Assembly: GCA_030390025.1 (NCBI GenBank)
Contig: CM059430.1
Coordinates: 62,744,001-62,808,000, forward strand
Origin: Squalus acanthias
Lineage: Eukaryota
Length of the DNA: 64,000 bases
Direction of reading: 5' to 3'
The notes below the pieces were generated by a model that was given only the letters and a program-made list of their open reading frames with translations, was not told the DNA's origin and ran no database searches. A program made the translations under genes and the position numbers. Below are positions 587-60,704 of the stretch, in pieces; the stretch's first letter is position 1; each line of letters starts with the position of its first letter.

Positions 587-2430
587 TTATGTAGCGGTGT
601 TTCCAGCCGTCTGATTGCGAGTGGGAAAATCCTCTACCCATCGTGAGAATGCATCTACCACAACTAAGAGATATTTATGACCCCGTGATGTAATAGTTAA
701 AGGCCCTGTGTAATCAATCTGTATCTGCTGCCAAGGACCCGAGCGTGGCTGTCGCATTATAGACCCCATTTTCTGTTTCCTTACAGGATCAAATCTAACA
801 CAGCTCAAACATCCTGCCACAGTATCTTAATATCCTGTCCCATACCAGGCCACCATCAATCAGTCCTAAATATCCCTCCATACCTTCGCATTTAGGGTGT
901 CCGCCGACATTATAGCAATGGATCCACTGCTTTAAATCTTTCCGAACTGAATTGGGAAGCAACCATAATTTAACTCCATCCTGCACCCGAAAAACGAGGT
1001 CCTGATGTCGTTCAATCAATTCTTCGCCCAAGGCAACAGACTGATAGATAGACATGAGAGGCGCCAGCTGGTCTTCCTGTCATTGTAAGTCCCGGAGCAG
1101 ACCAGGCTGAGCAGATCATTTACTCTGTCCCCTCGTCACAACCGGAGCCACAGGTATTGCTGCAAAAGCAATGTCCCAGGGCCACGGAGGGGCCTCAAGA
1201 GCCGCCAGTTTTTCTGCCTCATCTGCTATCCTATTGCTCCGGGATAACGGACATTTCTTCCTGTGTTTCTTTAATTTTTGCCATTGACATCCTACGTACT
1301 GACGTACACGAACCTGTATAACTTGCCACATGGGACCAATTTTAATCGCAACGCCATCGGTAGCCATGAAATTGTTATCTATGCACCACTGCAGCAATTG
1401 CATACATCCCCGAAACACATAATCAGAGTCAAGCACAATAACCAACTCCTTCTCCCGAGTGCCTTCTTCAAGCACTGTCAACACAGCAGCCAGCGCCACA
1501 AATTTTGCTGATCGAGAGCATGACACTCCATTTATGCGAACACAGCCAGCCCAGCACGGGGCTGTCCACTCAAGAACTGCCGTCTGTATACCAAAATACC
1601 CCCATCATCTTTAGTCTGGTCAGTAGTCTTTTCCTTAAAAATGGAGTGATTTAATGATGTGGAGGTGGCCTCTCACACATGGAGCTTACCCTCAATTAGA
1701 ATACCGGTCACCCACTCTTGTGGCCTATTCAATTGGTGTAATTTAACATTCTAAGCATGTAGAAGCAGAATCCACTGCCGTGGATGACCGCTATTCTAAA
1801 GTTAGCGAGTTTGCCTTCCAACAGCATTTTCAGGGGTGTCTGGTTTATCCAAAGATGAGCATCTTGCATCCCTGGAAGATATTCAAATTTCTGGACACCC
1901 CAGTTGGAGGACAGGATCAAATTTCTACTCCAGCCCATTTTCAACTCCGGAGATTTAAGTAATCTAGACCAAAAGCAATGGGGCAGTGGTCATCGCCATA
2001 CTTTGTTTTTGGAAGCACAGCTCCGATGCTGGCACCAGATACCGTGGGAAGTAGGTAGCAAGCCTTTTCTGGGTCCTGTTTTGCGTGGACCGGTGCACTG
2101 GCGAGGGCCGTTTTAAGGGCAGTCACGGCTTCTGTATGTTCTTCCAACCACTGTCAGTCAATCTCCTTCAGTAAAACATACATTGGGGCCGCCTTCTCCG
2201 CATAATCATGCATAAAATCTCTACAGGCTCCTGTCATTCTCATGCCCCAATTTTCACTTACACTCGTTTCGCCACTTTACCAGTTATGGGGATATTCTTA
2301 ACACCCTCTATGGACTGTTCAAAATCAGATACTGCCATCCGCTTAGGAAAACTAACACCTGCCCCACTATCTAATAACATAAATTTTACTTCCCCCGCGA
2401 TGCTGGTTCGTACCATGAGGCGCCCCCAGG
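587..2430 (-). mobile_element. pol: Old degenerate retroviral-like pol relic (protease, most of RT deleted, two RNase H-type domains, integrase N-half)
   Basis: MLLDSGAG; ALKTALASAP..IGAVL..PIAF; FWYTDGSS near 1575-1598; VIVLDSDYV; GPWQQIQIDYTGPL..VVVDAFSRWVE. Confidence 0.85.
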
Positions 2431-19400: not shown

Positions 19401-22400
19401 AGCCATTCCCCGGCCGGAGCCTCACACTCTTTCACTCAAACTAGTTGTGCATCCACAACAGAATTTGTTGGAAAGTGATTGTGTGTCAGGGTACATGTCA
19501 TTTATTATGCTGCAAAGGGGACATTTTTGTTGCAAACATCCAGATAATTATCTCCATTTTTATTGCGATTCTCTGAGAATATCTGCGTTTTAAAATGCAT
19601 TTGGTACAATCGGCGCTCTCTGAAAACAGATCACAAGGTTTTCAACTTTAATTCCTAATCGAGTTCTCATTTCCCCGTGTTACCCGGAGACTGTCACTAA
19701 CCGTGGCGTTTTGAACTATAATCAAGGGCTTACTGTAGATCTTACCGTCATTATTCTGCAGTCGGCACCGCGTCCCAATGAAGATCATTAGCACTAGAAA
19801 CGCCAATCCACCCACTGCACACCCAGGAGCCCAGAAGTAAAGTAAATTAACGTCATTACCTGCAAGATTAATAGGAACATTAAGTTATGGCGGGTGTGGT
19901 TAAAAATAGGCCTCAAGATAGATTATTGGTTAAACTATGGTATTGCTTTCAGTAACTCCGCGGTACAGAACGGCAATAAGAAAGCTTAAATACAAAACAT
20001 GATTTCTTTTAGATATAATGGCCCAGAAATTGATCTCGCTCTGTTCCCGCGGGCGTAAGGAGCAGGCGCGATCTCTCACTCCGCGTTGGCTTTTTCAGAT
20101 CCAGCTGGCACGAACTTGATGTTACACACATCAGCTGGGCAGTGCTTGCGTATCCCACCGGCGTAGTGAATTCGTGCGAGCTGTGGGATCACGTGACTCA
20201 GTTAGAGCCAATGGCAGCACACCATCTTCCATTCATAAGTTTCACATAGGTGCTGTGAAATCTATGAATCTTACACCCCCCCAAAATAACAGCTAAAACT
20301 CAATTAAATTAAAAAAAACCCATCACATTAATAAAATAAGTATAGTTAAATAAATTAACCATTTTAAATAAAAAATTAAATTTTTGAAAAAATTTAAAAT
20401 CTTTTAAAAAGTTATAAAAATAAACTTACCTGTCTTTAAAGTCTCTAAAAAAGATATACCTGTTAAAAAAAATTCAAAAAAATACTTAATTCACTACTTA
20501 CCTTGTTAAAAGTGGGTCTTACTCCTTTTTCCATTTCTAAAATCTTCCGTCCTTACCTGCGCGTCCAAAGCACTAAGTGCACAGCGTGCGCGCAGCCTGT
20601 AGCGCGCACGCGATGCACCGAGGAACCGCCCCCTTTTCCAAAGACCAAGTGCCGGTTTTCAGCGCATGCGCAGGGCATGCAGAAAACCGGCAATTGGAGA
20701 GAGAATACGCGAGAGTACGCAGTGCGTACTCTCGCGCAGCGGGATCAATTTTTAGCCCAATAGTTGAATTAATTTCTTCATCGAATGGATCTGACATTCT
20801 GGATTAATCTGCGCATCGCACTACCGGTTTTGGGCTCTCAAAACATTGGCCCAGAAATTGATCCGGCTGCGCGAGAGTACGCACAGTGTACACTCGCGCA
20901 GCCAGACTTCAATTGCCGGTTTTCAGCATGCACTGCGCATGCACTGAAAACCGGCAATTGATGGAAGTGAAAGGGGGCGGGTCCTCAGTGCACCGCGTGC
21001 GCGCTACAGGCTGCGCGCACGCAGTGCACTTCATCGCTTGCGCACGCAGGTAAGTATTGAAGATTCTGGAAAAGTAAAAAGCAGGCGCAGGAGCCTCTTT
21101 TAACCAGGTAAGTACATAATTAAGTAGTATTTAGAATTTTTTTTTACAGGTAAATCTTTAGTAGCGACTTTAAAGACAGGTAAGTTTATTTTTATAACAT
21201 TTTAAAAGATTTAAAATTTTTTCAAAAATTTATTTTTTTGTTTAAAAAGGTTAATTTATTTAATTACACTTATTTTAATAATGTGATGGGTTTTTTTTTT
21301 AATTTAATGGAGGTTTAGCTCTTCTTTTGGGGGCTTGTTGTATTCCTAGTTTTCACAGCAGTTCAATGGCCGCTGTGAATTCTATGAATGAGAGCTTGGT
21401 GTGCTGCCATTGGCTGTAACTCAGTCACGTGATCCCACAGTGCACTCGAACTAACTCCGCACTGTGGAATCACGATGCACTCGCAGCTGATGGCTGGGAC
21501 ATGAAGTTCCAGCGAGCTGGGACTGAAAAAGCCAAGGCGCAGTGAGACATCGCGGGAAGGGCTTACCCTCGCACGAACCCTCACACTGCAATTTCTGGGC
21601 CATTGATTTAGGAGAGTTAGAACACGAGAGAGATCAATTTCCCTTGACCAAAAGACTTGTTCTTGTTCTTGACCTTTCTTATTTATTAACATATGGTTTG
21701 AGGAAATTGACGGCAATTTTATCACAAGCGTTTCTTCGTTGCCCGCACGATATTCCGGATTGCAGCAGTCTGTTAAAAATCCTCTTTCAATTACCTGAAC
21801 TGTGTTTATTACAGTAGGAATGACACTGAATAGTAAAGGATATCAACGGGCGATTGTTCATTGATTATTGTCTTGGGGATGGGAAGAGTTGTTCCCAATA
21901 TGATTTATTGAACCGGCTGTACTGTCGCCTCTTTGCAGGCACAGGTTAAATGAGATTTATGAGACAGATTCCAATTAAACCCGCTGTGACAGGACGGGTG
22001 AGGGGTAAAAGCTGGCGAGGGGGTTAATTTCAGATCTCTGCAGTAGAATTAGCCGATAGGGGGATCAGCATCAGGAATTGCATTGGGAGAAGCCCGAGTG
22101 CATGACTGCAGCTCCTGGTAACAGTCTTGGTGCAAGGAGAGCAGGCAATCGTAAAGAATAAAACAATCTTAATATTGAAACGAAATTAATAATAAGCAGG
22201 AGAGGAAACATAATCGGATAGAAAAGATAAACTCCTGTTTATGATTGTTATACAATATAATTAAAGGAATTTGAATGCAAATAAGGTTTGACTGAGAATA
22301 TTTGTGTGGCGGGCGATATAACCAGGTTTTACAACACATCGGTTTCAATTATACATTAAAACATGAATTTAATGCATTTCTTTGAAATTTCCCATCAGCC

Positions 22401-25038
22401 TTCCGTGGACTATCGTCATGATTATTTATAAGTACAAACTGTACGATATATCTCTTTATGAATTTAACAGTGGCTGGCTCTCCTTTTTGGCCTGTTGGCC
22501 TCGTACCTTGGTTGGATTTAGAAACAACATAGGTGACAAGAGCTGGAGTCTCGAGAGAGACATGAGAAACCAAACAGGTATAACTGGCATCGCTTGGGAC
22601 AGGCTCTGTCTGGACCAAAGAGCTGGAAACTTCATACAGTCCCTCCGTGTTCTGCTCTTTCCTGGTATGTATTCCTAATGCAATTTCGACGCCATTTTTA
22701 TTCCAAGTGAGGGTGAAATTCTCCGGATAAAACGCAGCCGTTTTACACACAAGAGTCAGAGAAGCAGCTGAATCCCCTTCAGTGGAGACAATCTTCAGTG
22801 GGGTTGGGGCCGCTGCGGAACAGAGATTGAACAAAATCGAGTTACTGGGCACCATTGGGAGATTAAATATGATTCTGATTTACGTTCGGTCCATTTTATT
22901 ATAATAGCACCATTAGAAAGCGCAGCCTCCTGTCCATTTAATGTTACGCTCATCATCTACACACACCTGATCCATATCTCTCATAGACGCCCGCATCTGT
23001 TCAATTTACCCGCGCTATCAAGTCCAAGCCTTTGAGTTACTCAGCAGACAATTCGCAACGATTTGCTAATCAATGTTTGGTTTTCATAGTCCAAAGAATT
23101 AAGTAAATAAACCTCGGGGGTAAGTTTGCGCGCTGAGTCCCTCCGTGTTAGGAACAGATAGACAGTGAACAGTAATCTGCACATTGTGGATGGCAAAATG
23201 AGGGCCTTAGTCGATATCGGAGAGAATTCGCAGCCGAAGCATGAAAATTGGCGAAAGTAATTATATTCGGTTGAACCTTAGCAGGTTTCAGCAACACAGC
23301 TGTTCTGTGTTGTTTAATTTATTGGACATTCGTAGAATCAAAGAATCACAGAAATTTATGGCACGGAAGGAGGCCATTCGGCCCATCGTGCCTGCGTCGG
23401 CCTAAAAAGAAGTATACAGCCTAATCCCACTTTCCAGCTCTTGGTCCGTAGCCTTGTAGGTTCTGGCACTTCAAGTGCATATCCAAGTACTTTTTAATGT
23501 GATTAGGGTTTCTGCCTCTACCACCCTTGCAGACAGTGAGTTCCAGACCTCCACTACCCTCTGGGTGAAAAGATTTCTCATCAACTCCCCTATAATCCTT
23601 CTACCAATTACTTTAAATCTATGCCTCCTAGATATTCGCCTCCCTGCTGAGGGAAATAGACCCTTCCTATCCACACTATCCAGGCTCCTCATAATTTTAT
23701 ACAACTCAATCAAGTCTCCCCTCAGCCTCCGCTGTTCTAAAGAAAACAAGCCCAGCCTATCCAATCTTTCCTCATAGCTAAAATTCTCCAGACATGGCAA
23801 CATCCTCGTAAACCTCCTCTGTACCCTCTCTGGTGCAATCACATCTTTCCTGTAATGTGGTGACCAGAACTGTACGCAGTACTCCAGCTGTGGCCTAACT
23901 GGTGTTTCAAACACTTCTAGCATAACCTCCCTGCTCTTACATTCATTGACTGGGCGAATGAAGCAAAGTATCCCGGACGCCTTTTTAGGTTAATGAGGTG
24001 ACAACGTTGTGTGTTCCAAGCTCCAGTTTGTTGAGTGAAACCGTTGAACAACAGTTAGTTTCACGCTAACATTATGTAAGAATTAATTTCAGGAATGTTA
24101 AACCGCAGGGACAGCGATGGGGGCAGACAGAGCATCACAAATGGGCTGAGAGCCGTGTATATGTTGGGAGAGATGCATTAATACAAACGATATTCAGTCA
24201 GTTATATGCTTGGAATTTGTTCCAAAATTCCGCTATCAGACATCTGATGTGTAAATTGTCTTTGGAGTTATAGTCTAATTGGTTAATATTGATACATTTT
24301 GCAATACTCTGCCTGTGATATTGAATGTCGAATCAGCAGTTCTACACGGAGCACACGAACTTACAACTTTACTTATCGCGAAATGTATCAATACACATGT
24401 TTATATTGCCAAAAGCGGTGCAATAAAGCAATCACAAAACATCCCCGTTTGTTATGTTCGATATATTTACGACTGTGCCGCTCTCCTGTGTTTCACACTT
24501 ACCATGCACAATTAGCTGTGATCCGGTTCCATTTCCTCGAGAAAGTCCCCGATGGAACACTGCACAGTGATAGACTCCAGAGTCTTGGAAAGTCGCGCTC
24601 AGCAACTGAAAGAACCCGCTCGCCTTACTTGTCAGACCAAATAGTTTTCTGTTATCGGCGCTTATGCGCAGGTATTCATTCTCACCCTGTTTCCACCAAT
24701 ACACTCTTACCCAGGAATGGCCCTGGGAGATGGGAAACATGCAGTAGAAGGTGATGTTCCCCCCTCTGGATACAGTCGCTTGTTTGGGCACTTGAAACAC
24801 TCTGAACGTATTGTTGTCCGCCGCTGTCAAAAATATAGACAAGTACAGGTTAATTGTATTAGCCACGACCTGGAGATAGAAGACAGAAAAAACCTAGATA
24901 GAGGTATCGCGGTTCACTAAATAATGTGGAAACTACTTCGGATATATAAATTAAAGTAGCTGGGACAATGAATAAAGAGGTACCTGTGTAAATAATCCCC
25001 CGGAGAGTCAGGCACAGGAAAAGGATACTCGCCGACAT
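15728..25038 (-). CDS. Non-rearranging IgSF receptor, leader-V(J)-C1-TM-ITIM/ITSM tail, 6 exons, 337 aa (SIRP/NKp30-like)
   Basis: Exons 25038-24984, 24823-24503, 22812-22507, 19859-19746, 19041-18998, 15901-15728. All introns are GT-AG with compatible phases (1,1,1,1,0). Total 1014 nt, no internal stop. Confidence 0.88.
16795..18015 (+). repeat. Purine (G/A)-rich low-complexity tract with degenerate ggatcgaagggg units
   Basis: Strong purine skew on the plus strand; two related modules in tandem. Confidence 0.8.
18998..19041 (-). CDS. Exon 5, short cytoplasmic exon (GKEECVMGPNRREEL)
   Basis: Acceptor ttccttttcag, donor CTG|gtacgt; 44 nt converts phase 1 to phase 0, as exon 6 requires. Confidence 0.75.
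19746..19859 (-). CDS. Exon 4, transmembrane segment (GNDVNLLYFWAPGCAVGGLAFLVLMIFIGTRCRLQNND)
   Basis: Acceptor atcttgcag, donor G|gtaaga, 114 nt, phase 1/1; uncharged hydrophobic stretch followed by basic residues. Confidence 0.85.
20020..20758. mobile_element. Harbinger-type MITE
   Basis: TIR ggcccagaaattgatc / gatcaatttttagccc, 3-bp TSD aat, AT-rich core. Confidence 0.8.
20848..21601. mobile_element. Harbinger-type MITE, same family, opposite orientation
   Basis: TIR ggcccagaaattg / caatttctgggcc, TSD att. Confidence 0.85.
22507..22812 (-). CDS. Exon 3, Ig C1-set domain
   Basis: LTLVCKTAAFYPENFTLTW, YTCLVSHVSL; acceptor ttccgcag, donor G|gtacga; 306 nt. Confidence 0.93.
23335..23985 (-). 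mobile_element. CR1 3' end in intron 2
   Basis: VRPQLEYCVQFWSPHY..LFSLEQRRLRGDLIE plus 3' tail. Confidence 0.9.
24503..24823 (-). CDS. Exon 2, Ig V-set domain with germline J-like G strand
   Basis: Motifs ITFYC, VYWWKQ, DSGVYHC, GNGTGSQLIVH; acceptor ttgacag, donor G|gtaagt; 321 nt. Confidence 0.93.
24984..25038 (-). CDS. Exon 1, signal peptide MSASILFLCLTLRGIIYT
   Basis: ATG at 25038, hydrophobic leader, phase-1 donor G|gtacct. Confidence 0.8.
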
Positions 25039-44844: not shown

Positions 44845-45803
44845 ACAACAATTGCATTTATATAGCACCTTTAACATAGTAAAACATTCGGAGCTGCTTC
44901 ACATGAGCACAATAAGATAAAAATTGACACCGAGCCAAAGAAGGAGATATTAGGACAGGTGACTAACAGCTTGATCAAAGAGATAGGTTTTAAGGAGATT
45001 CTTAAAGGAAGAGAGGTGGAGAGGCAGAGAGATTTAGAGAGGGAATTCCAGAGCGCATGGCCTAGACAGCTGAAGGCACAGTAGTGGGTTAAAGCAAGTG
45101 AGAGATGGAGAAGAGGTCAGAGTTGGAAGAATGCATAGTTCTCAGAGGGTGGTAGGGCTGGAGGAGGTTATAGAGATGGGGAGGGGCGAGAGCATGGAGG
45201 AATTTGCACACAAGGATGCAAATTTTTAAATGGAGGCGCTCAGAGACCGGGAGCCAATGTAGGTCAGTGAGCACAGGGGTGATGGATGAAAGGGGATTAG
45301 GTGCAAGATACAATATGGGGACCAGAGCTTTAGATGAGCTTAAATTTAGGAGGGTGGAAGATGGAAGGCCAGTCAGGAGAGCATTAGAATAGTTGAATCT
45401 GTAGGTGACAAAAGCATGGATGAGGGTTTCCGCAGGAGATGGGCTGAGGCAGGGGCGATATTTTGGAGGTAGTGGTGGAGGTGGGCTGTCTTGGTGATGG
45501 AGTGAACATGGGGTCAGAAGCTCAGCTCCAAGTCAAATAGGACGCAAAGGTTGTGAATAGTCTGATTCAGCCTGAGACAACCGATGGCTAGTGATCAGAG
45601 GTTCTGACAGGGGCTGAAAACAATGGACTTCCAAATGTTTAATTGGAGAAAATGTCAGTTCACCTAGGACTGAATGTCGAGCAAGCAGTCTGAGAACACA
45701 AAGGCAGTGGAGGGGTCGAGAGAGGTGGCGGTGAGTTAGGACCACGTACTTGTGGAACTTGATGTGCCTTTGTATGTTTTCGCCGAGGGGTAGCATGTAG
45801 ATG
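44845..45803 (-). mobile_element. L2-like LINE 3' portion, the target of the provirus insertion
   Basis: ITPVLTDLHWLPV; sequence continues at 57264. Confidence 0.75.
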
Positions 45804-47062
45804 TGTAAGGGGTATCTTAATGGGGTCAGCCTTCGCTTTCTGACACAGTGAGCGGCTCGAATCGCTCCCACACCCCTCTGGTTCCTAGACTTTGGACTTA
45901 TTTAGGGGTTGTGAACAAAATTGCAGTAAACAACAGGTACTGATGAAAGAATTTTACTTTATTAAAAGAAAAAGGTAAACTTGAAACACACTTATTACTT
46001 AAACACAGATTGGGGAGCACACGGTACAAGCGAGGGACAATGACAATATATCAAACAAAACCTTATCCCTCCCAAAGATCCCACTATCTAGCTAGGTTTT
46101 TGGTTTCAGGAGATCAGGGATAATGCTCACCAACGAATCCTTGACAGGATTTTAGAGTCTTTTGTTTAAAAGACTCCGTAAGGCCCTTGTTGCTGCGAGG
46201 TGTCCGATGGTCACTGAGGCAGTCGCTCTGGTTTCTTCTTGCGTGCTGGTCTATTTTCTGGCCTTCTTCCTCGTGGCTTGTGGTGGTTTTTGCTGGAGCA
46301 GGGAGAGAGCTGTGTCCACGTAGTCGGCGAGTCCGAAAGAGAGAGAAGTTATGGCACAGGCTTTTAATTATACTGTTTCTTTTTCGCGCCAAAAAAAACC
46401 CTTACTAAAACGGATTCCTTTAGGTTGCAAATGAACCGTGCTTAGTCCAATTGTTTAGTTTTGCCGGGCTTGCGAGTTCCGATGGCTTTTTCTCAGTGTT
46501 AAACATGTCTTGATCGTTTTCTGATTTAAACACAGCCTTATCTACGCGCCAAATCTCCACCCTATTGTCCTAGGTCTTTTGGCGGACTTTCTTAACTGCT
46601 CTGGTCGATACTTGGCTGATGGGTTTTTGATGGGATAATGGGCTATGAAACTGTGTGCTGGAAGTTTTATTGTCAGGAATCGGTTTTAGATTTCAAGCAT
46701 CCTGTTTGCACCTGGGGATTTCAATAGGGTTCTTGGTTTATTCATATTTGAATGTGTTTGTGAGTTTTTGCTTTGTCTCTTGCACCTTGGTAGGATTTGC
46801 AATGTAAACAATTCCCAGACAGCTTGATCTGTTCACTGCCTGGCCATGACCCTCGCAGCTTGTCTTGTGTCTGTGAAAGGTGTCTCTCCCAACAGTAAGA
46901 TTCAAAAGTCAGTTTCCTCAGGATTTTATCTTCCCTGATCTTTAGGTTTTTACACCAAATCACTTCACTTAGGTCCCATCATCCCAAGTTTTTATGAAAG
47001 GTCCAAAAATCACTCCCTTTAGGGCTCTGTTCGAGTTTCTGGGGGATTTGGCGAAGCCTACA
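45804..47062 (-). repeat. 3' LTR (1259 bp)
   Basis: tgtaagggg...gcctaca, adjacent to the PPT. Confidence 0.95.
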
Positions 47063-47073
47063 TCCCCCACTTT
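47063..47073 (-). promoter_or_regulatory. Polypurine tract
   Basis: AAAGTGGGGGA abutting the 3' LTR. Confidence 0.85.
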
Positions 47074-47344
47074 GATACTAAAACTGAATTAGTATCATTA
47101 GCAGGTGAGCAAAATTTCCGATCCCCGAAAACCAACCTTCCCCTGTATTACCTAAACTAAAAACCCAAACATACATTCCCCTTTTGAAAGTGGTGTTTCA
47201 GGTACATACAGGTAAGAATCTATCTTTATTTCACATCCAAGCACGGAGAGGGTCCGACACCCCTGCACAGCTTGGAAAAAACACATCATACACATCATAA
47301 AAATGACACAACACACATACAAATTTTTTATTAAAAGACAAAAT

Positions 47345-49698
47345 TCAAGGTTCGTTCCATCCCTGGCCATAGCCTTTATTTTGATGCACTTCCCAAGTCC
47401 CTTCGTGTCTGGAGCGGAGCTCCCCGTCCCTTCCGCTGCACTTTGTACACAGCAGGTAGAGAACTATCCCGAGCTGGCAGACCACCAAAAGATGGGAAGC
47501 CATCCTGATCCAGGAAGGCACCTCTATATTCCCGAAAATATCCCACCAGGGTGGAACTATTATATCCAAAATCTCTGCCCCTATTTCAACTGTTTTCTGT
47601 TCCAGGGTGTAGAAATGTTTTTGTGAAATCTCTACAGCTTTAAATAGGATGGTAAGATGTTCGGGTAGTGGGGGAATCTTATATCCAAAGTAAGTCACAT
47701 ACTTTTGCAGGTTGGTGATGTTTTCTGTTACAGTGAGGTTAACAGTGGAGGGTTCAGGAATGGGAACAATCCGTTCCTGGGCCACTTGAACTTCTGCCTC
47801 GGGTTTAAAGCAGAAACTGCTGTCACTTACCGGACACCAGAAGTGTCCATGCTGGTAGTGGGACGCACCTGTGGTGACACAATATGTCCCACCCCTTATA
47901 TATGCTACCTGTGAGGAAACATGGCTGTGTGCCATCACCTCCATGGTACAATTGATAGGTCGTGCGCCAGCAGCTTTAAACCCGCACTGTGGTTTGGAAT
48001 AGGCGTTCAAGTGCTGGGGACACTGTATTATGTGTGAACCCCGGCTCCGGCACCCGGAGAGCTCAGTACCTGTCATGGCGTGCTCCCACTTTATGACATA
48101 AGGTGGGACCGCTGTAAAACGGATGTGTGCACCCCTTGAATGACTCCAATGTTCTCCACCCTGTATACCGGTACGGGTCGGGCTGTCCCACTCATGACCG
48201 GCATTCTCACTACTATCCCCATGATAGTGTGATTTGAACGCCCACAATCTATTGGGACAGGGTAGGCTTCAGAGGCTAGACGAAATTGGCATGGGCTCAG
48301 CGAATTACTAAACGGGTGGAGGGCTGCGAGGTGCTTGTTGCTGATCCAGGAGGGGACTAAACCTTGCTTTAAATCCTCCAGGTTGCTACGGCCCTCGCCC
48401 AGCAACCATGCCCCGTACAGCACACACACCTCATTCTGTGCAGCCTGATCCGATGCATTCCTATCCTCCCGTATGAGTGCATTTACTGTTTTGGCATGCC
48501 TTTCCAATTCTGCAATAATTTCCTTTAAATGAACCGTCATAGCTTGGTCCTCATGTAGCTCTGAGCCTACCACTGTGTTCCCATCCTTCAGGATCTTTCT
48601 TAACTGGGTTTTTAAACCATTTATCTGTGTCTGTAATTCCATGTCATCCAGGCTATTTATTACAGAGGACCCTGTACTATAGGCAGTGAAAACATCATTC
48701 CAGGCTCCCCTTCTTTGTCTACCCGTGCCCATAGGGTTCTCAGGGTGTATTCTGTATAGCTCTACCTTGTCTATATTGGCAAAATCAAATTCGTAAAATT
48801 TCCTAAACATTTCCTTTAGCAGGGCCTGGTACAGCTGCTCCGTCTCCTTAGGACACCACTCAGGTAAGTATACCTCGGTAAGGTTTAATATTACTGAAGC
48901 TACTGCATAGTGCACCCCCTGGTATAGTACCTTTTCGGTTGGTACTAGGACTAACCCATTCCCTGGTCCCTTGGTGGTGGTAGGGCACTTTTCTTCCAGG
49001 GTTTTCGGTACCTGGGTCGTGGGTAGGGGCTTTCGGGTGTGTGCCACGAGTACAGTGGCATTAACTGGGACCGGAATGTGTGGGACCACGCACCCATGCA
49101 GGCTAGAATCCCACCCTATCCCCTCCCCGGCATCTTGCCATTGGCTGGAGAAGATGATGGATACCCCTGTGGGGCAGGCTTCCTCTGATCCCCACATACA
49201 AACATAGACTCCCTGTTCCGACTCCCACCACTTATCCCAACCATCACTCACTCCTCCTTGGGTCCCTGTGATTGTCCGGTGGGTGTCGTTCCCTAATCTT
49301 TCCCAGTCGGCTGTATGGTCCCCTGCGTCCCTGCTCAGCTTCCTGAGCCACCACCACCTATTCAGTGAAATCCGTCCCTTACAGGTAAGGCACACACGCT
49401 TCCCCTCGGTGACACTGACCCTTGTGGCAACGACCTGTATTCTGGGGCATGGGAGGGAGGCCTCCCCGTACGTGAACCCGGGCTGGTTGGAGTATTTAGT
49501 AGAGTTGGACCCCAGCCACCCTGGCCACCTTCCCTTGTGGAAGTAGATGGCGAGCTCCTCCACTCCCCGCTCACCACCCCCTGCGTTGACGACTGGTGCT
49601 CTCACTCCTGAGCACCCATAGATGTGGGAGTCCTCCACGTCACCTCGGTCACCGATGCTCACCCCTACCAGGGCGAGCAGGAGCAGAAACCTTGTCAT
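47345..49698 (-). pseudogene. env: env, ~784 aa class I fusion glycoprotein with N-terminal Ig-like domain; single frameshift at ~48133
   Basis: Signal peptide MTRFLLLLALVGVSIG, furin site RQRR (48720-48709), heptad region, Cys-rich region, C-terminal TM; candidate splice acceptor at 49712. Confidence 0.88.
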
Positions 49699-49899
49699 TC
49701 CGAAGTCCTTTCTGTAGGGGCACACACAAAACATATATCCATGTCCCAGAAAGGTTCTCTGGCTGGATAATTAATCAAGCCCTTAAACTTAAAAAAACTC
49801 TACAAACAACTAAACTAATGATAACCCATAACCACCAAAACTGCAATTACTTAAAACCGAAAATTCTGTACATTTGCCGCCCGTCTCCGGACGGCCAGG

Positions 49900-52800
49900 T
49901 TAAATCCTGTTTAGTCTCTGCCTTATGTGGCCTCTGGATGTCGTGTACACCTGGGTGTAGTGTGGCCTGTACCACCGGACCCAGAAGCCCTTCCTCAAAA
50001 CCGCTGGGGGTATCTTAACATCCCAGCTGCGTCCTGTGCTGCAGCACACTACCCCCTTTGGTGTGGCTGCAGCGCCCTCGTTCATATCTGTGGGCTCCTC
50101 CCAGCCTGAGGCTGCAGGCGGGGGACCCTTCTCTCTCTCTTCTCCCAGTACTACCTCTCCTGTGAAACCCTCACTGTTGGAGGCTGTAGGCTGGGAATCC
50201 CCAACTTTAGAACGCTCCCTGCTCTTGGGCGCTCTTCTTCGGGTTGCAACCCTTTTTGGGTGGGACCCTCTAAACAGATACACCTGTGGCCGCAGTAGCC
50301 TTTGCTGTGGTGTGCGGGGAAACCTTCTTAGGGCTCTGGCCACTGGGGGTGTGCTTGAGTCCCACATAATCGGTGGAGTGACCTCTGCTGTGAAACAACA
50401 CACTGTCCCTCCCGCTGCAGCTTGTGCGTCTGCCACAGCTGCGGCTGGCTGAGGATTTCTAACTTGGGGGCAGTCCACCTTTGCCGGCTGTTCCCTTTTA
50501 GGTTTAAACAGTTTGCATTGGTTGATGTGAAACCACTTTGTATGGCGGGGCATCTTTATGGCATAGACCATGGGGCTTGCCTTGTCTACAATGTTGTAGG
50601 GCCCCATGTACAATGGTTCGAAACTCCCTACCCGGGCAAAATTTCTCACTATGACCTGATCTCCAACCTCCCACTCGTGGTGCTTGCGGGGTTCCAGCAG
50701 CAATCGGTTACCCCGATGCTGTTTTCCCATGTTACTCGCAGCCTGCCAGTGGACCTGTTTAAGGTGGTCCAACAGATTCCTGACGAATCTGTCCCGGTTC
50801 ACCTCCCTGAGCTGCCCTTCCGTGAGCACCGGGGCTAGCACATGGGTGGGGGTCCGCATAATCCTGCCAGTCATGAGCTGGTGTGGGGAATACCCCGTGC
50901 TTTTTGACTGGCTGGCCCGGATCCCCATTAGGACCAACGGTAAGGCTTCTACCCACTTTTTGGGTGAGTCTCCCATCTCCTTTCGCAGCCTTTCTTTGAT
51001 GGTACGATTTAAACGCTCCACAATCCCTGATGACTGTGGGTTGTGGGCGACGTGCCATTTCCCTTCTATGCCGAGTACCCTGAGGGTCTCTTGCATGACC
51101 TGCCCAGTAAAGTGACTCCCCTGGTCTGACTCCACATACTGTGGGAGCCCCCATCGTGAGAACACTTCCCTGACCAGGATCCTGGCTGTACCCAAAGCGG
51201 TAGCTGTTCGACATGGAAAAGCTTCCACCCACTTTGAGAACACATCCACCAGGACTAGGCAGTATTTGTAGCCTCCCTGAGCGGTGGGTAGGGGCCCGAT
51301 GTAGTCGACCTGGATCGACTGCCATGGTCCCTCTACCCTCCTGATGTGTCCCATAGATACCTTCCTTTTCTGGGGGTCAGGGTTGTTAGCAGCACACACC
51401 AGACAGCCTGCACAGAACTCACGGACATCCTCCCTCAGTCCTGGCCACCATCCTGCCTGTTCCACCCGCTGCCAGGTGGTCTCAGGCCCGGGATGCCCCA
51501 CTCCTGGACCCTCATCGGCCAGTTGGAGGAATTCCCTTCTGTGCTGCTGCGGCACTACCCATTGTTCCCCCCTGAACAGCATGCCTTCTTTGTGGGTGAT
51601 GGTTGCTGCGCCGTATGGGCCTTCCACCTTCTCCCCTCTAGCCAGCGTTTCCAGGACAGTTTTTAGGATGGGATCCTGTGCCTGGACCGTCTTTAGGTCC
51701 GGGGTCAATGCTACCCCTGCACTCCCTTGGGTCCCTCCTCTGCCTCTGATTGCTGCTACCGGGTTTGATCCATATGGATCCCACAACGTGCCAGTACTGG
51801 CGCCCTCTTTGGCCAGCATGTCGGCTTGGTGATTGCCCTCTGCGCGGGGCTCTACCTTGGAATGGGCCTTCACCTTTTGGATGTAGACCCTACCTTCCTC
51901 CCCTACTGCCCTCATGATATTCTCCAACAGAGGCTTGATGGCCAGGGGTCTCCCATCAGCGGAGATGTATCCACGACGGGACCAGATGGCCAGCTACACT
52001 GTACATGAATTTCATGTGAACATGCTGTCCGATCAAATCGTGTATGGGGTAGGGAATTCCTCGGGGGGTGTGACTACATACACCACCGCAGACAGTTCAG
52101 CCTGCTGGGCACTCATGGTACTGGGGAGCTTGATTGCCAGAGCAATGCCTGCCTCTGGGTTATAAATCCCACACCCTGTGAGTCGTTTTCCAGCTGATAC
52201 TGTGCTTGAACCGTCCACATAGATTTCGCGGCCTGTGGGGTGTATCCCAGCTCGCAAACCTATGTTGACTTCCCATACCCCTTCAACGGAACACCGGTGG
52301 GCTGTCCCTGAGTAAATCATGTTGGCTGTGAGCTTTGGCTCGTAGAGACCTTTTACCCTCAGATCCATTTGTGAGAGAAGCAGGGTCCAGCGAGCAATGC
52401 GGGCACTGCTCACTGTCCCATCTTTAATTCTCCCATCCAAGAGCATCTGGGTGGGCGTGTGGTGAGTGAGGAGTGTGATGGGAGAGGTGCCTGTGAAGAT
52501 CAATGATCTTTTCACAGCCCAGTGAGTGGCTAGGAGGTGCCTCTCACAGTTGGAGTAGCTCCTCTCCACATCAGTGAGTATTCTGGAGGAGTAAACCACT
52601 GGTCTCAGCTTGCCATGCCTCTCTTGGAGCAGCACTGCACTCAGACTGTCCCCACTGGCTGCTACCTCCAGGAAAAACTCTTCCCCTCCATCAATCGCCC
52701 CTAGAGCCGGTGCGGTCTGCAGATCTCTCTTAAGTTTCACAAAGGCAGCCTCGCAACCCTCATCCCAAACCCACTCCACTCCCTTGTGTAGGAGTCGGAG

Positions 52801-54174
52801 CAGAGGGGCTGCTGTGGCTGCGTAATCCTCAATGAAATCTCTGCAGTACCCAGTTAGCCCAAGAAAAGACCTTACTCCTGTAACTGTGTTGGGGGCTGGT
52901 AACTCCTGAACTGCTTCCCTTCTAGCTTTGTCAATGGCCCTCTCCCCTGCTCGCACAGCCAGGCCCAGGAATTTGACTTCCCGCTGGCCAATCTGTGCCT
53001 TTTTGGGGTTTACTTTAAAGCCCTCTTGCCTGAGCAGTTCCAGCAGTTCTGCCAGAAGGGGACCATGTTCCTCTCCCTCATCGGTAAAGAGGAGTAGGTC
53101 GTCCACATACTGGACCAGCTGATGGGGCCTGCTGAAGCCCTTCAAGCAATTCGCCATACATTGGTGAAAAATGCTTGGGCTGTTGTGGAAACCCTGGGGC
53201 AGACAGTTCCATGTGTGCTGTTGGCCTTTAAATGTAAAGGCGAACTTGTACTGATCCTCTCTCCTTAGAGAGATGGACCAGAACCTGTTGGAAATATCCA
53301 GCACTGTAAAGGTGTTCGCAGATGCTGGGATACTTCCAATGAGGTCGGCTATGGCTGCAACCGTGGGGGCACAGGCGGGGATGTTTCGGTTGAGCACTCG
53401 ATAGTCTACTGTGGCCCTCCAGGAGTTGTCTGGTTTTCTAACCGGCCACAGTGGGGAGTTCACGTGGGTAACTATAGGTCTCAATACCCCCTGCTTGACT
53501 AAAGAAGTCAAAGCCGTTTCCAAGTCTGTCTCAGCTTCCCTGGGGAAGTTATACTGCTTTTGTGGGCGGTTCATGGGGTCCCCAATCACACTAACCTCGA
53601 CCCCGGTTACCCTCCCACAGTCGTGCTTGTGAGTGGCAAATGCTGCGAGGTATTCCTGCACAAATGCCTGGTACTCCATTGGAGTGTTACTGACCATGAG
53701 TTCGAGGTCGTAACCCTCCTTTGGTTTTACTGTGCACAAGGTCCCCTTGCCTTGTGCCTCCGAGATGACTGCTACCTCACTACCCTTTTGGGTACATGCT
53801 CCCCATAGACAGTGGTTCCTTAAATCCACTAAAATCCTGTGGCCTGTGATAAAGTCGGCCCCCAGGATCCCCTTCCCTTCTTGCTCCCACTTCATTAGGA
53901 CACAGGTCCACTTGGTGTGGAGCGTTCCCAAATGAATGGACAGCGGAATGGAGAATGAGCCAGCCTGCTCGTTACCTGTGAATCCCACTAGGCTGTACGG
54001 GACCCCGTTAGACAGAGGTGAAGTGGCTGGGTTATCTGAATAAATGAGGGTGCTCGAAGCTCCTGTGTCTAACAGATAGGTCCCTTCTACCTTTTCTACC
54101 TCCATCTTAACATGCGGTCTCTTCCAGGCATCATACTCGAGGGGACACAGGTAGACCGGCTGTGCTAGCTCCAG
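49900..54174 (-). pseudogene. pol: pol: protease, RT, tether RNase H, RNase H, integrase (three clustered stops)
   Basis: LLDTGA; LPQGFHNSP and YVDD; FFLEVAAS..AVLLQ..RPVVYSSR; IYVDGSS..AQQAEL..SDS; IQVDYIG/ESDQG/VERLN DDE triad; GPY motif. One frame, stops only at 52035, 52014 and 51996. Confidence 0.95.
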
Positions 54175-55999
54175 TCATGCCTCTGGGTTGGGTGGGGCAG
54201 ATGGGATTAGAGAGCCAGTGGCTGTAGCCACCTTCCCTGGGCCATCAAACAGGACTCTGATGGCCGCTACTATTGTGTCCAGTGTGGGGGAAGAGGTCGG
54301 TGCCTCTACTTTTGGGGCAGGAGTTGGGGACTTCTTTGCTAGGCTATCCGTCCAGGGATTCCTACAGTCCTTTCTCCAGTGCCCAGTCTTCCCGACACCC
54401 GAAGCAGCTACGCTTCGTGTCGGAAGGTTTACCACCTTCCTGGTGCCACTCCTTCTTATCCTGACTGGGCTTTATCTCATGCACCTTCCCTTTCGGTGGG
54501 GTGTCTTCAGCTCCCCTACCGTTCCGGTAGGCTAGGGTCAGTTGCCTGACCACTGCCTCCTCGGTGACCCGGGGATCTCTTGGGTCAAACCAAAGCTCAG
54601 CCTTGGCTTTGACTCATGGCAAGCTGTTTGCCACTAGGCTACGGAGCCAGTGGGCCAGCTCGTCCCTGTTCAGGTTAGCCCTGTCGAGAGCCCCATTACA
54701 AGCACCCCTGTACACCGGCCACAGCCTGTCTGCGAAAGCCTGTGGGGTCAACCCTGCGAGCTGCACTGTTTTCTCCACCCGGGAGAAAGGACTTCCCTCA
54801 TTCATTCCCGTGGCCTCTAAAACTTCTTCTCTGACGGCCGCATACCTGTTCTGTCCTCTCTTGCTCTCAGTAGAGAGGGACTGGTATAATTTGCCATCTA
54901 ATGAGAACAGGAGCATTTTTGCCATTTCAGCATCGTCACAATCATTGATGCCTGCTGACTGCTCTACCTCCATGAAGTGGACTGAGGTGTCTTCCTTTTG
55001 GGTAAGTTTACTCAGGTGGCTTACCATAGCCCTAAGCTGTTGTGTACCGTGGAGAGCCAAGAATTGACTTTCAAGGGGTCCCTGACCTCCACCACCGGCG
55101 GGCGGGCCGAATTTTTGCTGTCATGCTCGGCACATTGGCCCTGGCTCCGACTTCTCCTGCATCGGTTCGCCCCCCTCTCCCTGCTGCCAGACCGAGTCAA
55201 AACTCGGCGCCACAGGTGCTGGTGTGCACTCCCTGTCCACCTCACAGATTGTCTGCCCCTCCTGCTGCCTAACCAAGCTTCTCCTTGGCGCCACAGGTGG
55301 TGGTCAAACAGTCTCCCCCTGCTCCTCCAGGTCTACCTGGGCCGCACCCGGGCTTATCAGGCACAGCATGCCTTTTGTCTTGGACAGAGCAAGGTTCAGA
55401 CTCTCAATCTGCTTCTGACAGGTGCCGTGGTCCCCTATCTCAAACTCCCTTGTACTGGCTACTCTGTAGGCTGCCTGAACATCATTTAACTTCTGTGTGA
55501 GTTCCCTTAATTGCTTGGCAAGGCGGGTGTTCTCTTCCCACAATGCCAGTTCACTACTTTTGTCCTCGGTGGCCTGACACTGGAGGTATCCCTTACTGGC
55601 ACGGTGTTCCTCCAGCATCTGTGACTGTTCCTGATCTTTTGTGCCGAGCTCTGCTAACAACCTATCCCCTGCTATAGCTCTGGCACGGGACAGTTGGCTT
55701 TCTTCCTTTAGCTCTTCTGTGAGAGCCTGAATGCGCTTCCCCATAAGCTGCATTTGTTTCTGGGAGCAAACCAACCATATGGCTTTCTCCACAGACTTAT
55801 TGTATTCCTTGCTCTCAGTCCATGCAGCTGCAGCGTCCATAGGACGTTCAGCATGCAACAGCCTGAGGACCCATTTCTTGGTGATATTTACTTTTTTATA
55901 TACATAGGATGACATCCTCTCTTCCATTTTTGTTCTCTCCTCAAAACCAGCATTTACTGCTTCACAACCCTTTTGCCAAAGTCCTGCCGCGGTCGCCAT
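54175..55999 (-). pseudogene. gag: gag, disrupted (coiled-coil N-terminus, capsid-like region, CCHC knuckle)
   Basis: ORF pieces 55999-55304, 55060-54614, 54553-54362, 54435-54175; the knuckle CFGC-GKTGHWRKDC is split by a +1 frameshift near 54394. Confidence 0.85.
55981..55998 (-). promoter_or_regulatory. Primer binding site, tRNA-Arg(TCG)
   Basis: Minus strand TGGCGACCGCGGCAGGAC, 4 nt inside the 5' LTR; the plus strand reads GTCCTGCCGCGGTCGCCA, which I recognise as the 3' end of vertebrate tRNA-Arg(TCG) plus CCA. Confidence 0.85.
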
Positions 56000-56002
56000 T
56001 TA

Positions 56003-57263
56003 TGTAAGGGGTATCTTAATGGGGTCAGCCTTCACTTTCTGACACAGTGAGTGGTTCGAATCGCTCCCACGCCCTCTGGTTCCTAAACTTTGGACATATT
56101 TAGGGGTTGTGAACAAAATTGCAGTAAACAACAGGTTCTGATGAAAGAATTTTACTTTATTAAAAGAAAAAGGTAACAAACTTGAAACACACTTATTACT
56201 TAAACACAGATTGGGGAGCACACGGTACAAGCAAGGGACAATGACAATATATCAAACAAAACCTTATCCCTCCCAAAGATCCCACTATCTAGCTAGGTTT
56301 TTGGTTTCAGGAGATCAGGGATAATGCTCACCAACGAATCCTTGACAGGATTTTAGAGTCTTTTGTTTAAAAGACTCCGTAAGGCCCTTGTTGCTGCGAG
56401 GTGTCCGATGGTCACTGAGGCAGTCGCTCTGGTTTCTTCTTGCGTGCTGGTCTATTTTCTGGCCTTCTTCCTCGTGGCTTGTGGTGGTTTTTGCTGGAGC
56501 AGGGAGAGAGCTGTGTCCACGTAGTCGGCGAGTCCGAAAGAGAGAGAAGTTATGGCACAGGCTTTCAATTATACTGTTTCTTTTTCGCGCCCAAAAAACC
56601 CCTTACTAAAACGGATTCCTTTAGGTTGCAAATGAACCTTGCTTAGTCCAATTGTCTAGTTTTGGCAGGCTTGTGAGTTCCGATGGCTTTTGCTCAGTGT
56701 TAAACATGTCTTGATCGTTTTCCGATTTAAACATAGCCTTATCTACGCGCCAAATCTCCACCCTATTGTCCTAGGTCTTTTGGCGGGCTTTCTTAACTGC
56801 GCTGGTCGATACTTGGCTGATGGGTTTTTGATGGGATAATGGGCTATGAAACTGTGTGCTGGAAGTTTTATTGTCAGGAATCGGTTTTAGATTTCGAGCA
56901 TCCTGTTTGCACCTGGGGATTTCAATAGGGTTCTTGGCTTATTCATATTTGAATGTGTTTGTGAGTTTTTGCTTTGTCTCTTGCACCTTGGTAGGATTTG
57001 CAATGTAAACAATTCCCAGACAGCTTGATCTGTTCACTGCCTGGCCACGCCCCTTGCAGCTTGTCTTGTGTCTGTGAAAGGTGTCTCTCCCAACAGTAAG
57101 ATTCAAAAGTCAGTTTCCTCAGGTTTTTATCTTCCCTGATCTTTAGGTTTTTACACCAAATCACTTCACTTAGGTCCCATCATCCCAAGTTTGTATGAAA
57201 GGTCCAAAAATCACTCCCTTTAGGGCTCTGTTCGAGTTTCTGGGGGATTTTGCGAAGCCTACA
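56003..57263 (-). repeat. 5' LTR (1261 bp)
   Basis: tgtaagggg...gcctaca, adjacent to the PBS; roughly 30-35 differences from the other LTR by manual count. Confidence 0.95.
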
Positions 57264-57302
57264 GATGAGAATTAGGAGGGGGCCAAGTGTAGATCTAAGG
57301 GG

Positions 57303-57439: not shown

Positions 57440-59019
57440 TAGATCCAAGGGGGACTGCAAAGGTAACAGAACGGGTAGAGAAGCCATTGCAGGAAATTCT
57501 GTGGCTAAACGTGGTCGAATGGATCCAGAGCAAAATTTATTTGCAAAAAATTAATTTGGATAAAGGGAAGCATCTATTGGCTTGCGCTTCCCATTATTGT
57601 TAGCGGCGCTGTGAATAAAGAAAAGAAAAACATTTTCCCTCTATTATTTTCTGTGCTTCCAATTGTTTTGAAATTTATTGCAATCTAGTTGAATCTGCTG
57701 TAAGAATCTCTTTGTGAGATCTCTGATTCCGTCTGATTCAGTATTGACCCATATTGATGGCAGTGATTAAAACTTTATTCAACACAAGCAAGAATCAATA
57801 CAATTACTGTATCTCAAGCAGGAGTGTACAAGGTATAATTAAGAGTTATACTACCCCATTTATGCCTTGGGTAAAACTCACAGTAAGAGTTGTCTGCTCT
57901 CTCTGGCTCGTGCCCTGAATTCTCCTCAAGTCTTCTGCAATTTACAACTGTCAGGATTCCCTTCTTATACACTGTTCTCTCCAAAGCAATTATGAATTTG
58001 CCTCCCTCCCTTTGATTGGCTTTCTCGTGGCCCACGTAACATTTCCCAGTCCTTCCCTTCAGTACTTTTCCATCATGCATAGTCATTTCAGTGGGTGTTA
58101 TTTTGCATATAGTGGCCTTTTCCTTATCTGTCTAGTGAGTCTCCCTCATCAGTCTGGTGTCTGTGTGTTTCAGCAGACTGCAGCCTTTGTCGACATTCCT
58201 CAGCCTGCTTGATTTTCTCAAGTCTGTGACTTTATGCCTTTCCAATGTGCCATTCTTTAATTACGTGTGCTATTATAAAATAGTTGCTCTTTATTAGTCA
58301 AACTACTCATGATTTTTCCATCTGCCTTTACGCTAAGCTGGTTACCTCGTCGTTTAAACTTAAGTGTGATTGCAAGCATATATTCATGTGTATAAAGAAA
58401 ATAAGTATTAACAAATTAATAAACAAATTGCCTATAATCTTTCAATCCACACCTTGAGGAGTGACGCTATCTCCGACCTCTCGTTTAATCTTATTTCTTA
58501 TCCTGCTGCAGGAGGTCTACTAATTCTAAGTTATTAGCACGTCAACTAATTACATACATTTCAAGCAACAGATCATGATACAGACAAAGAAAATCATAAT
58601 ACATTGGACAGAAAGCTAAAGTTTACTATATCAATAAATCATGGACTTAAAAGGTTCTATGGACTAGAAATTCGTTATAGCCAAGGAATGCACGGTGCCA
58701 GTAGAAAAGTTGGAGAATTAGCACCAGGCGCAAATGCTTTAGACTGCATGCAAAATTCGTGCTCACTGCTCAAAGAAATTATTGGAGTCCTAATTCAAGT
58801 CTTAAAACCCAAGCTCATTGGCGTTACACTCAAAGGGTGGACCAATATCAGGTGCAGTCTAATCGCAAGTCATGATTAACACATGCTTTTTTCACTACTT
58901 AAAGGGGAGGTTCATAGATGCTGCAGCACCTCATTCTCAGCATTGCTGGCTGTGCAGCTGCCTCAGCAAGCAAAAGCAGAACAAGTAGAAGGAGCCAGAG
59001 GATTGTACCAGGTGTGCTC

Positions 59020-60704
59020 ATGGCAGATCCATGTCCCAGGGAGAGAGCCCACAGATTTTCCAATGAAGCATTGGAGGCCTTGGTTTTTGCTGTGGAGAGA
59101 CGGAGGGCGGTGCTCTACATAGCAAGTGGCAGTATTCCCTCACCACAAGTCTTCCACACCATGTGGAGGGAGGTAGCGCAGCACATCTCAGGCAGCACTG
59201 TGGTCCCCAGGACCCACACACAGTGCAGGAAGAAATTTTACGACCTCACTCATGTGGTCAGGGTGAGTGAATGCTTCAACAAATGCTACATACCACCATA
59301 TGAACCACAATCTTCACACACTGCCCAAAACACCACACCCCCAGCACTCACCGACCAACAATCTCTACCTACCAACACCACATCTCACATCTTGTGCACA
59401 ATGACATCTATTCAACTATGGCAGGCACATCACCCAAACACCTTGCTCCACACTCAGTCACACACTTTCCTTACTCTGGCAGGCCAAGGCGGCTCACAAC
59501 AGGAGGGAGCAGGAGTGCACAGGCAGGGGACAAGCTGACACCCAACCACTGTCTGCACTGGAAAATAGAGTGCTGCAGATTATTGGGTGCCAGGTGGTGG
59601 GTGCCGTGGCCACCAGCGGTGTTGACCCTCTTGAGGACAACAACGGTATGTTCATCCCTACTCCTTCTTCTCACATCCCACTTCCCCCTTACCTCACAAG
59701 CATTTCGCAATTTCCAACTAATCATGCTGTATGTATGTACTTCTCCCTTCCTGTCCCCTCCCCTCACCTTAACCTGTCTCTTGCACCTTTATGCTTTCAG
59801 ATAATCAGCAAGCACCTGAGCAGCCTGTCCCTGAGGGCACTGTAGAGAGTAATGTGGGAGAAGAGGAGGAGGAAGAACACACCGCATCACTGCATGTCTC
59901 ACCCGCAGGCACCAGCTCAGATACTGGCACTACGCATTCTTTAGAGGCTAGTATAGTAGTGGGATCTGCACAGGGTGATGCACCGGGGATGAGCGGGATG
60001 CAGCAAGGCCAGGGGGAAAGGATAGCTTTGGAGCCAGCTCCCCAGAGGGCGAATTTGCAGCGAGTTCTGCTGCACAGGACTCATATGAGGACATTGATGG
60101 GCAGGCCTTTAGAAGAAGGGTGATGGGCATGCACACAGAGATGATAGGTATAATGGCAAGGGTGCCCGAGAGCCTCTCTGCAATGGTAAAGAGCGTGGAG
60201 TAGTCCACCTCCAACATTGTACAGAGCTCTGTGCACACCATGGAGCCCATCATTTCCACTCTGCAAAGGATGATAGACTCCCAGAGAGACCGTGGCAACC
60301 CAAACCTGATGCTATGTGTGATGGGCGATCTGGCAGCTTCCATTGCAGCACATGTGGAAGTGACACAATGTCTTAGTGCTGTAATGCAGTCTATGCTTGG
60401 TGGCATTCAATCTCAGACTGCTCTCATGCAGTGTCAGCTTGATGCAACGCAAGCTCTGACTGCTGCCATCGTTGCTGAGTCTACCACTGTCAACTGGGGC
60501 TTTCACTGTGACACAGCAGACCAGAAATCCAGGCCCAGCGCTGGTCAAGGGCATCCTGCAAGGCCATCTGAAATCTCCCACACATACTCTAAGCAGTCTT
60601 CCACCAGCCGTGCTGCAGCCACTGGGACAACACTTCATAGGAGCACTAGCATAGGCAAAGGCACAGTAACGAGAGGCACTAAGGGATTGCACAAGAGTGA
60701 ATAG
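59020..60704 (+). pseudogene. Harbinger Myb/SANT-like DNA-binding protein, intron-containing, disrupted
   Basis: RFSNEALEALV..WREVAQHIS..RTHTQCRKKFYDL; donor AGG|gtgagt near 59262, acceptors near 59482 and 59800. Confidence 0.75.

Follow-up and report, generated by a model that had tools for sequence, protein, structure and literature searches.

Lokiretroviruses carry gag, pol and env, a dual ribonuclease H (RNase H) and an envelope (Env) related to the fusion (F) proteins of Mononegavirales (PMC7947760; PMC9040795), and they were found in none of six chondrichthyan genomes (PMC7947760). Foamy Env is F-like as well (PMC11468914), and for where retroviral env came from, Wang and Han did not decide between four scenarios (PMC7947760). 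Lineage I of the elephant shark endogenous retroviruses (CmiERV-I) clusters with snakehead retrovirus (SnRV) (Han 2015, PMC4422223); SnRV-related pol joined to a gamma-type env has already been reported, and epsilon Envs were classed as neither gamma- nor beta-type (10.1101/2021.11.23.469661). We describe an endogenous retrovirus (ERV) on the reverse strand of a 64,000-nucleotide window of Squalus acanthias contig CM059430.1, within which all positions are given. The original prediction, made from the letters of this window, took it for a young lokiretrovirus. We consider it probable that it is instead a dead, multi-copy, full-length ERV of a deep canonical lineage, likely that of CmiERV-I and related to SnRV, with a predicted F-type Env that bears a probable immunoglobulin (Ig)-like domain.

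The reverse transcriptase (RT) phylogeny that had been proposed as a check puts the element on the canonical-retrovirus side, in trees with loki, spuma, epsilon and gypsy rows but without Odin. The references were foamy, gamma, delta and beta/alpha records labelled by motif, records L029/L081 and L040, which correspond to SnRV and Xen-1 in the PMC7947760 supplement, and two loki contigs whose RT agrees by eye with published loki sequences. Representatives were kept of these (31 of 84 rows in the RT tree, 32 with the tether added). Two near-complete lokiretroviruses (L027, L028) come from metagenome contigs that are presumably DNA of host fish. The canonical-side placement has support of 97/97 with RT only and 99/93 with RT plus tether under a mixture model. 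In the latter tree loki (100/100) and foamy (100/100, the element outside) form clades of their own, and the element groups apart from both, together with proteins of frog and coelacanth (87/93). Approximately unbiased (AU) tests on RT only reject joining this clade with loki (p=0.02), foamy (p=0.036) or epsilon/gamma (p=0.006), and with RT plus tether (LG+G4) joining it with loki is rejected at p=0.0013. The loki RT motif CPFGY.NSP is absent from the element, which has LPQGFHNSP in its place; a search of viral contigs for the loki motif gave 0 matches. Because the RT plus tether tree places the element on the canonical side and the AU test rejects its clade with loki, the element is, judged by its sequence, not a lokiretrovirus, and it leaves the chondrichthyan loki count unchanged. 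That it is retrovirus-grade and not Ty3/gypsy was rightly predicted, given its dual RNase H and an RT apart from gypsy elements (100/99). Among the deep canonical lineages, the RT plus tether AU test does not reject a clade with SnRV (p=0.175).

The predicted fold of Env matches parainfluenza F (Foldseek E 7e-11) and has a structural core in common with foamy Env and the F proteins of paramyxo- and pneumoviruses (class Ib, PMC11468914) at a sequence identity of 8-15%; the fold matches include walleye epsilonretrovirus Envs. The same search also gave an F-type match to the Wenling thamnaconus septentrionalis filovirus glycoprotein (E 5e-11). At the sequence level, homology to loki env is detectable (E 1e-13). 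The F-protein profile PF00523 matched none of 36 env family members, while loki env gives E 0.002, and neither PDB nor Pfam yielded an F match when searched with the env sequence. Single-sequence folding reached a pLDDT of only 32, and an Atlas structure match to one unnamed chordate cluster (0.82) is a lead only. The F-like nature claimed earlier therefore holds by predicted fold and by homology to loki env, but not by PDB or Pfam sequence match, and we regard an F-type fusion protein as a supported prediction. The surface part before the furin-like site (RQRR, 48720-48709) is 330 aa long, and the peptide after it is barely hydrophobic (mean 0.01). The long region predicted between furin site and transmembrane segment is present, but it spans about 400 aa, not ~450. 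As predicted, a CX6CC or LQNR-type (immunosuppressive) motif is absent from both env frames, which are separated by a single frameshift between 48268 and 48094. The surface subunit probably includes an N-terminal Ig-like domain, which the original prediction missed; such a module N-terminal to the core resembles the arrangement that PMC11468914 describes for coronavirus spike, whereas foamy Env has an insertion instead. Since an F-type Env is common to foamy, walleye and probably snakehead viruses, it is not diagnostic of lokiretroviruses, for which it had been taken as a mark, and neither is the dual RNase H, common to all retroviruses; an "F-like env" should thus not be used as a loki marker.

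Among isolates, SnRV (record L081; its RT is the NC_001724 row) is the best RT match at 37% identity. It resembles the element in a FATH.DCG linker motif, an in-frame gag-pol stop, a weakly homologous env and a weakly hydrophobic post-furin peptide, and its primer is likewise tRNA-Arg. SnRV differs in a much longer env, in open reading frames (ORFs) downstream of env, and in an integrase and RNase H that group elsewhere. Translated by eye, scaffold 2 of CmiERV-I reads ATHKHDCG, PACAP, LDISNGFWS and LPQGFHNSP, nearly as in clade member P0007; among the alignment rows listed, HKHDCG is restricted to clade members, and SnRV has HRNDCG. The same comparison finds the pol signature motifs, a dual RNase H, a GPF/Y-type integrase end and a CCHC knuckle in both elements, and both hosts are cartilaginous fishes. 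Because of these shared pol motifs, the element's pol likely belongs to the CmiERV-I lineage. The CmiERV-I long terminal repeats (LTRs) are shorter, about 0.83 kb against 1.26 kb, and its scaffold 2 primer site is one we take to be for tRNA-Ser, against tRNA-Arg here. Its env is gamma-type (LQNRMALD and CX6CC are readable), whereas that of the element is F-type, implying an envelope-class swap within what appears to be one pol lineage. In the Xenopus clade member P0006, pol reads on into part of an env that has 40% identity to P0040, a member of the element's env family, and P0007 and the Xenopus pol P0005 form a pair (81/89 in the RT tree). As F-type env would thus lie on both sides of the by-eye placement of CmiERV-I, the gamma-type env seems the likelier newcomer. 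The original prediction, for which an already catalogued family in this host group would count as refutation, is thus partly refuted, since the pol lineage appears to be that of CmiERV-I from elephant shark. We found no report of lokiretroviruses or F-type env ERVs in sharks, or of F-type env in this clade, in a literature search that left out subscription papers, Repbase/Dfam and bioRxiv supplements, of which those to 10.1101/2021.11.23.469661 could be relevant here. A term search of the NYNRIN paper (PMC9447858) returned nothing on donors.

Several results count against this interpretation. The trees lack Odin, ERV-L, fish foamy-like ERV and lentiviral rows, and CmiERV-I was compared by eye rather than placed in a tree. 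The RT-only AU test does not reject the window element plus P0001 with loki (p=0.067), the RT plus tether AU test does not reject the clade with foamy (p=0.28), sistership with SnRV reaches only 54/40 in the RT-only tree, and SnRV joins epsilon/gamma (98/96) when the tether is added. RNase H groups with loki and foamy (96/92, unrooted), integrase sits weakly with loki (84/89 and 72/94, in trees with no NYNRIN row for the loki/CGIN1 type; the RT topology is not rejected, p=0.34), and env is closer to loki env than to SnRV env (E 2.5e-5). Evidence for the Ig-like domain is sub-threshold, and an Ig-focused profile gave 0 PDB matches at E<=1.

These domain-level affinities are what would be expected of a recombinant in which a canonical RT acquired the RNase H, integrase and env of a loki-like donor, and domain swapping is documented (PMC7947760; 10.1101/2021.11.23.469661). 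We nevertheless think such an origin unlikely, as the integrase data are compatible with the RT topology and shared ancestral states would give the same pattern without a swap; foamy viruses also combine a canonical RT with a group-I RNase H and an F-type Env. The same affinities, with the gag-pol-env layout and dual RNase H, would suit a lokiretrovirus, which would be the first from cartilaginous fish given the zero count in six genomes (PMC7947760). This is very unlikely, however, because lokiretroviruses are defined by an RT clade from which tree and AU test exclude the element. Their Env is also different. It measures about 570 aa, of which about 116 precede the furin site, and its fusion peptide is hydrophobic (mean 1.5); the element has a longer surface subunit (330 aa) with its probable Ig-like domain, and a mean of 0.01. 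From the loki set of signal peptide, RXKR, fusion peptide, coiled coil and transmembrane segment, the element has RQRR, long helices and a transmembrane segment around a barely hydrophobic peptide, and its protease-RT linker is much shorter. A foamy-like (clade Tu) ERV would share long LTRs, a 4-bp duplication, an F-type env and the RNase H group, and is allowed by RT plus tether, but RT only rejects it, and env ends ~280 nt short of the 3' LTR, an interval with no ORF >=150 aa and no accessory gene of foamy type. The zinc knuckle and the in-frame gag-pol stop are also unlike foamy viruses. This is the most improbable of the alternatives. ERV4, considered separately, was rejected because it is described as having a 5-bp duplication and lacking both GPY and a knuckle (PMC4299795).

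Our tentative proposal, which we hold at somewhat less than even chance, is that this clade of shark, frog and coelacanth elements descends from the first canonical retroviruses as a relic. Its canonical RT would be combined with an ancestral set of features that lokiretroviruses share (a group-I RNase H, a loki-type integrase and an F-type Env of class Ib), with an Ig-fold attachment domain added and a gamma-type swap in CmiERV-I. If so, F-type Env would be the ancestral retroviral envelope, kept in loki, foamy, snakehead and walleye viruses, and gamma-type Env a later replacement. A canonical-side lineage with a loki-homologous, F-/foamy-like env favours the two of Wang and Han's scenarios in which the common ancestor had an F-type Env, and suggests that retroviruses have probably long used entry proteins of the F type, and used them broadly. 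The element and CmiERV-I offer a close pair with two envelope classes on one pol lineage, in which the direction of the swap is testable.

The provirus is full-length, as predicted, with pol in the order protease-RT-tether-RNase H-integrase (Table 1). The predicted tether and second RNase H were both recovered by Pfam and motifs (the latter matching RNase_H in two pieces, E 0.005 and E 3e-5), as was the GPY motif of the integrase. Pfam found no match in gag, and comparison with SnRV Gag and loki Gag showed no similarity; its CCHC zinc knuckle is divided between two frames, and it terminates in a TGA that shares the reading frame of pol. This copy is dead because of six stops and two frameshifts (three stops and a frameshift in gag, three stops in the second RNase H, a frameshift in env). 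The leader is unusually short, with ~75 nt from the 5' LTR to the likely gag start (55927-55998), and an ATG overlapping the primer-binding site is in frame with gag. The 5' LTR has TATAA near 56570 and AATAAA near 56160, from which U3/R/U5 borders were inferred. The primer-binding site starts 4 nt past this LTR, and a 22-mer matching it occurs 422 times in the genome; ARAGORN called tRNA-Arg(TCG) at both scanned loci holding it. Long tandem tRNA-Arg(TCG) gene arrays with a period of 1.62 kb lie at about 39.0-42.2 Mb of G000:C26 in the genome, and one array unit also contains tRNA-Ser(GCT).

The family has hundreds of genomic copies. Exact 22-mers gave at least 278 env, 98 RT and 2141 LTR matches and 0 in controls, each a lower bound, and counts of single words are not comparable as copy numbers; the copy count proposed earlier thus shows a multi-copy family. 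An env search gave 40 scored candidates, the window copy among them, and every one matched at 96-100%. The window env is 97.7-98.2% identical to nine paralogues, and env is unbroken in a single frame at 1 of 10 loci examined. The env stretch was found in 20 of 23 listed sequencing runs under seven coded organism labels, none of these runs being recorded as RNA. In four runs that we guess to be RNA, contigs cover parts of env, pol and LTR, although such contigs cannot show transcription. In three of the four, contigs diverge at 49647, at the env 5' end, and return at 49867 after a stretch of unknown letters, reflecting either a variant env leader or a subfamily. The closest env relatives are gene models of sawshark (77-78%) and skate (61-63%), followed by Mustelus, Chiloscyllium, Heterodontus and frogs, which points to an elasmobranch host. 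Three sawshark models (P0023, P0024, P0031) fuse env pieces to zinc-finger, Niban and cadherin genes, either as an artefact of annotation or because exons were captured. In the frog Mantella aurantiaca, 16 env proteins of the family cluster together (P0062 cluster), most of them 677 aa long, and form a young frog branch.

The LTRs, predicted to be ~97% identical, agree at 1229 of 1258 aligned bases (97.7%; Kimura two-parameter distance 0.023), and 9 of the 29 differences are CpG transitions. With age taken as d/2u, the insertion dates to 5.3 million years at 2.2e-9 (PMC7947760) or 53 million years at 2.2e-10, the rate used for shark in PMC4422223, where d=0.024 was dated to 54.5 million years. 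The "young" and "fairly recent" insertion claimed earlier thus holds only at the mammal-like rate and not at the shark rate.

By analogy with known retrovirology, the ancestor would have primed reverse transcription on tRNA-Arg, made Gag-Pol through stop-codon readthrough and expressed Env from a spliced RNA. Furin would have cleaved Env, the N-terminal module of Env would have attached to cells, and refolding of the F-like kind would have driven membrane fusion. Because env is retained in many copies, the data suggest that the family spread mostly by reinfecting the germ line; the same retention would imply infectious enveloped particles.

Table 1. Features of the provirus and its flanks in the window.
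Feature	Position	Strand	Basis or remark
Whole provirus	45804-57263	-	Full-length, not coding-intact
5' LTR	56003..57263	-	1261 bp, TG..CA; LTR comparison
3' LTR	45804..47062	-	1259 bp, TG..CA ends; LTR comparison
Target-site duplication GATG, left	45800..45803	+	Flank comparison
Target-site duplication GATG, right	57264..57267	+	Flank comparison; duplication of 4 bp
Primer-binding site	55981..55998	-	18/18 complementary to host tRNA-Arg(TCG) 3' end plus CCA
gag	54175..55927	-	3 stops and one frameshift; start codon inferred
Protease	53850..54174	-	LLDTGA at 54075
Reverse transcriptase	52765..53556	-	RVT_1 E 2e-32; LPQGFHNSP; YVDD at 53109
Tether (degenerate Ty3-type RNase H)	52369..52764	-	RT_RNaseH_2, PF17919 E 4e-21
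Second RNase H	51799..52230	-	YVDGSS/QAEL/SDS; 3 in-frame stops
Integrase	50506..51567	-	rve E 2e-16; HHCC, DDE core; GPY at about 50604-50596
C-terminal pol extension, about 200 aa	49900..50505	-	No Pfam match
env, predicted F-type (class Ib)	47345..49698	-	Signal peptide, furin site, transmembrane segment from about 47503
Ig-like domain, env surface subunit (probable)	49171..49458	-	Individually non-significant hits
Polypurine tract adjoining 3' LTR	47063..47073	-	Next to the 3' LTR

Elsewhere in the window, a host gene has a V-set exon (24435-24893, reverse strand, E 6e-8) and a C1-set exon (22352-22879, reverse strand, E 1e-10), a layout that looks immune-receptor-like. A Myb/SANT-like ORF (58918-59535, forward strand, E 4e-4), which we take to be Harbinger-type, lies beyond the 5' LTR, and a separate RNase H fragment is found at 1119-1604 (reverse strand, E 2e-6).
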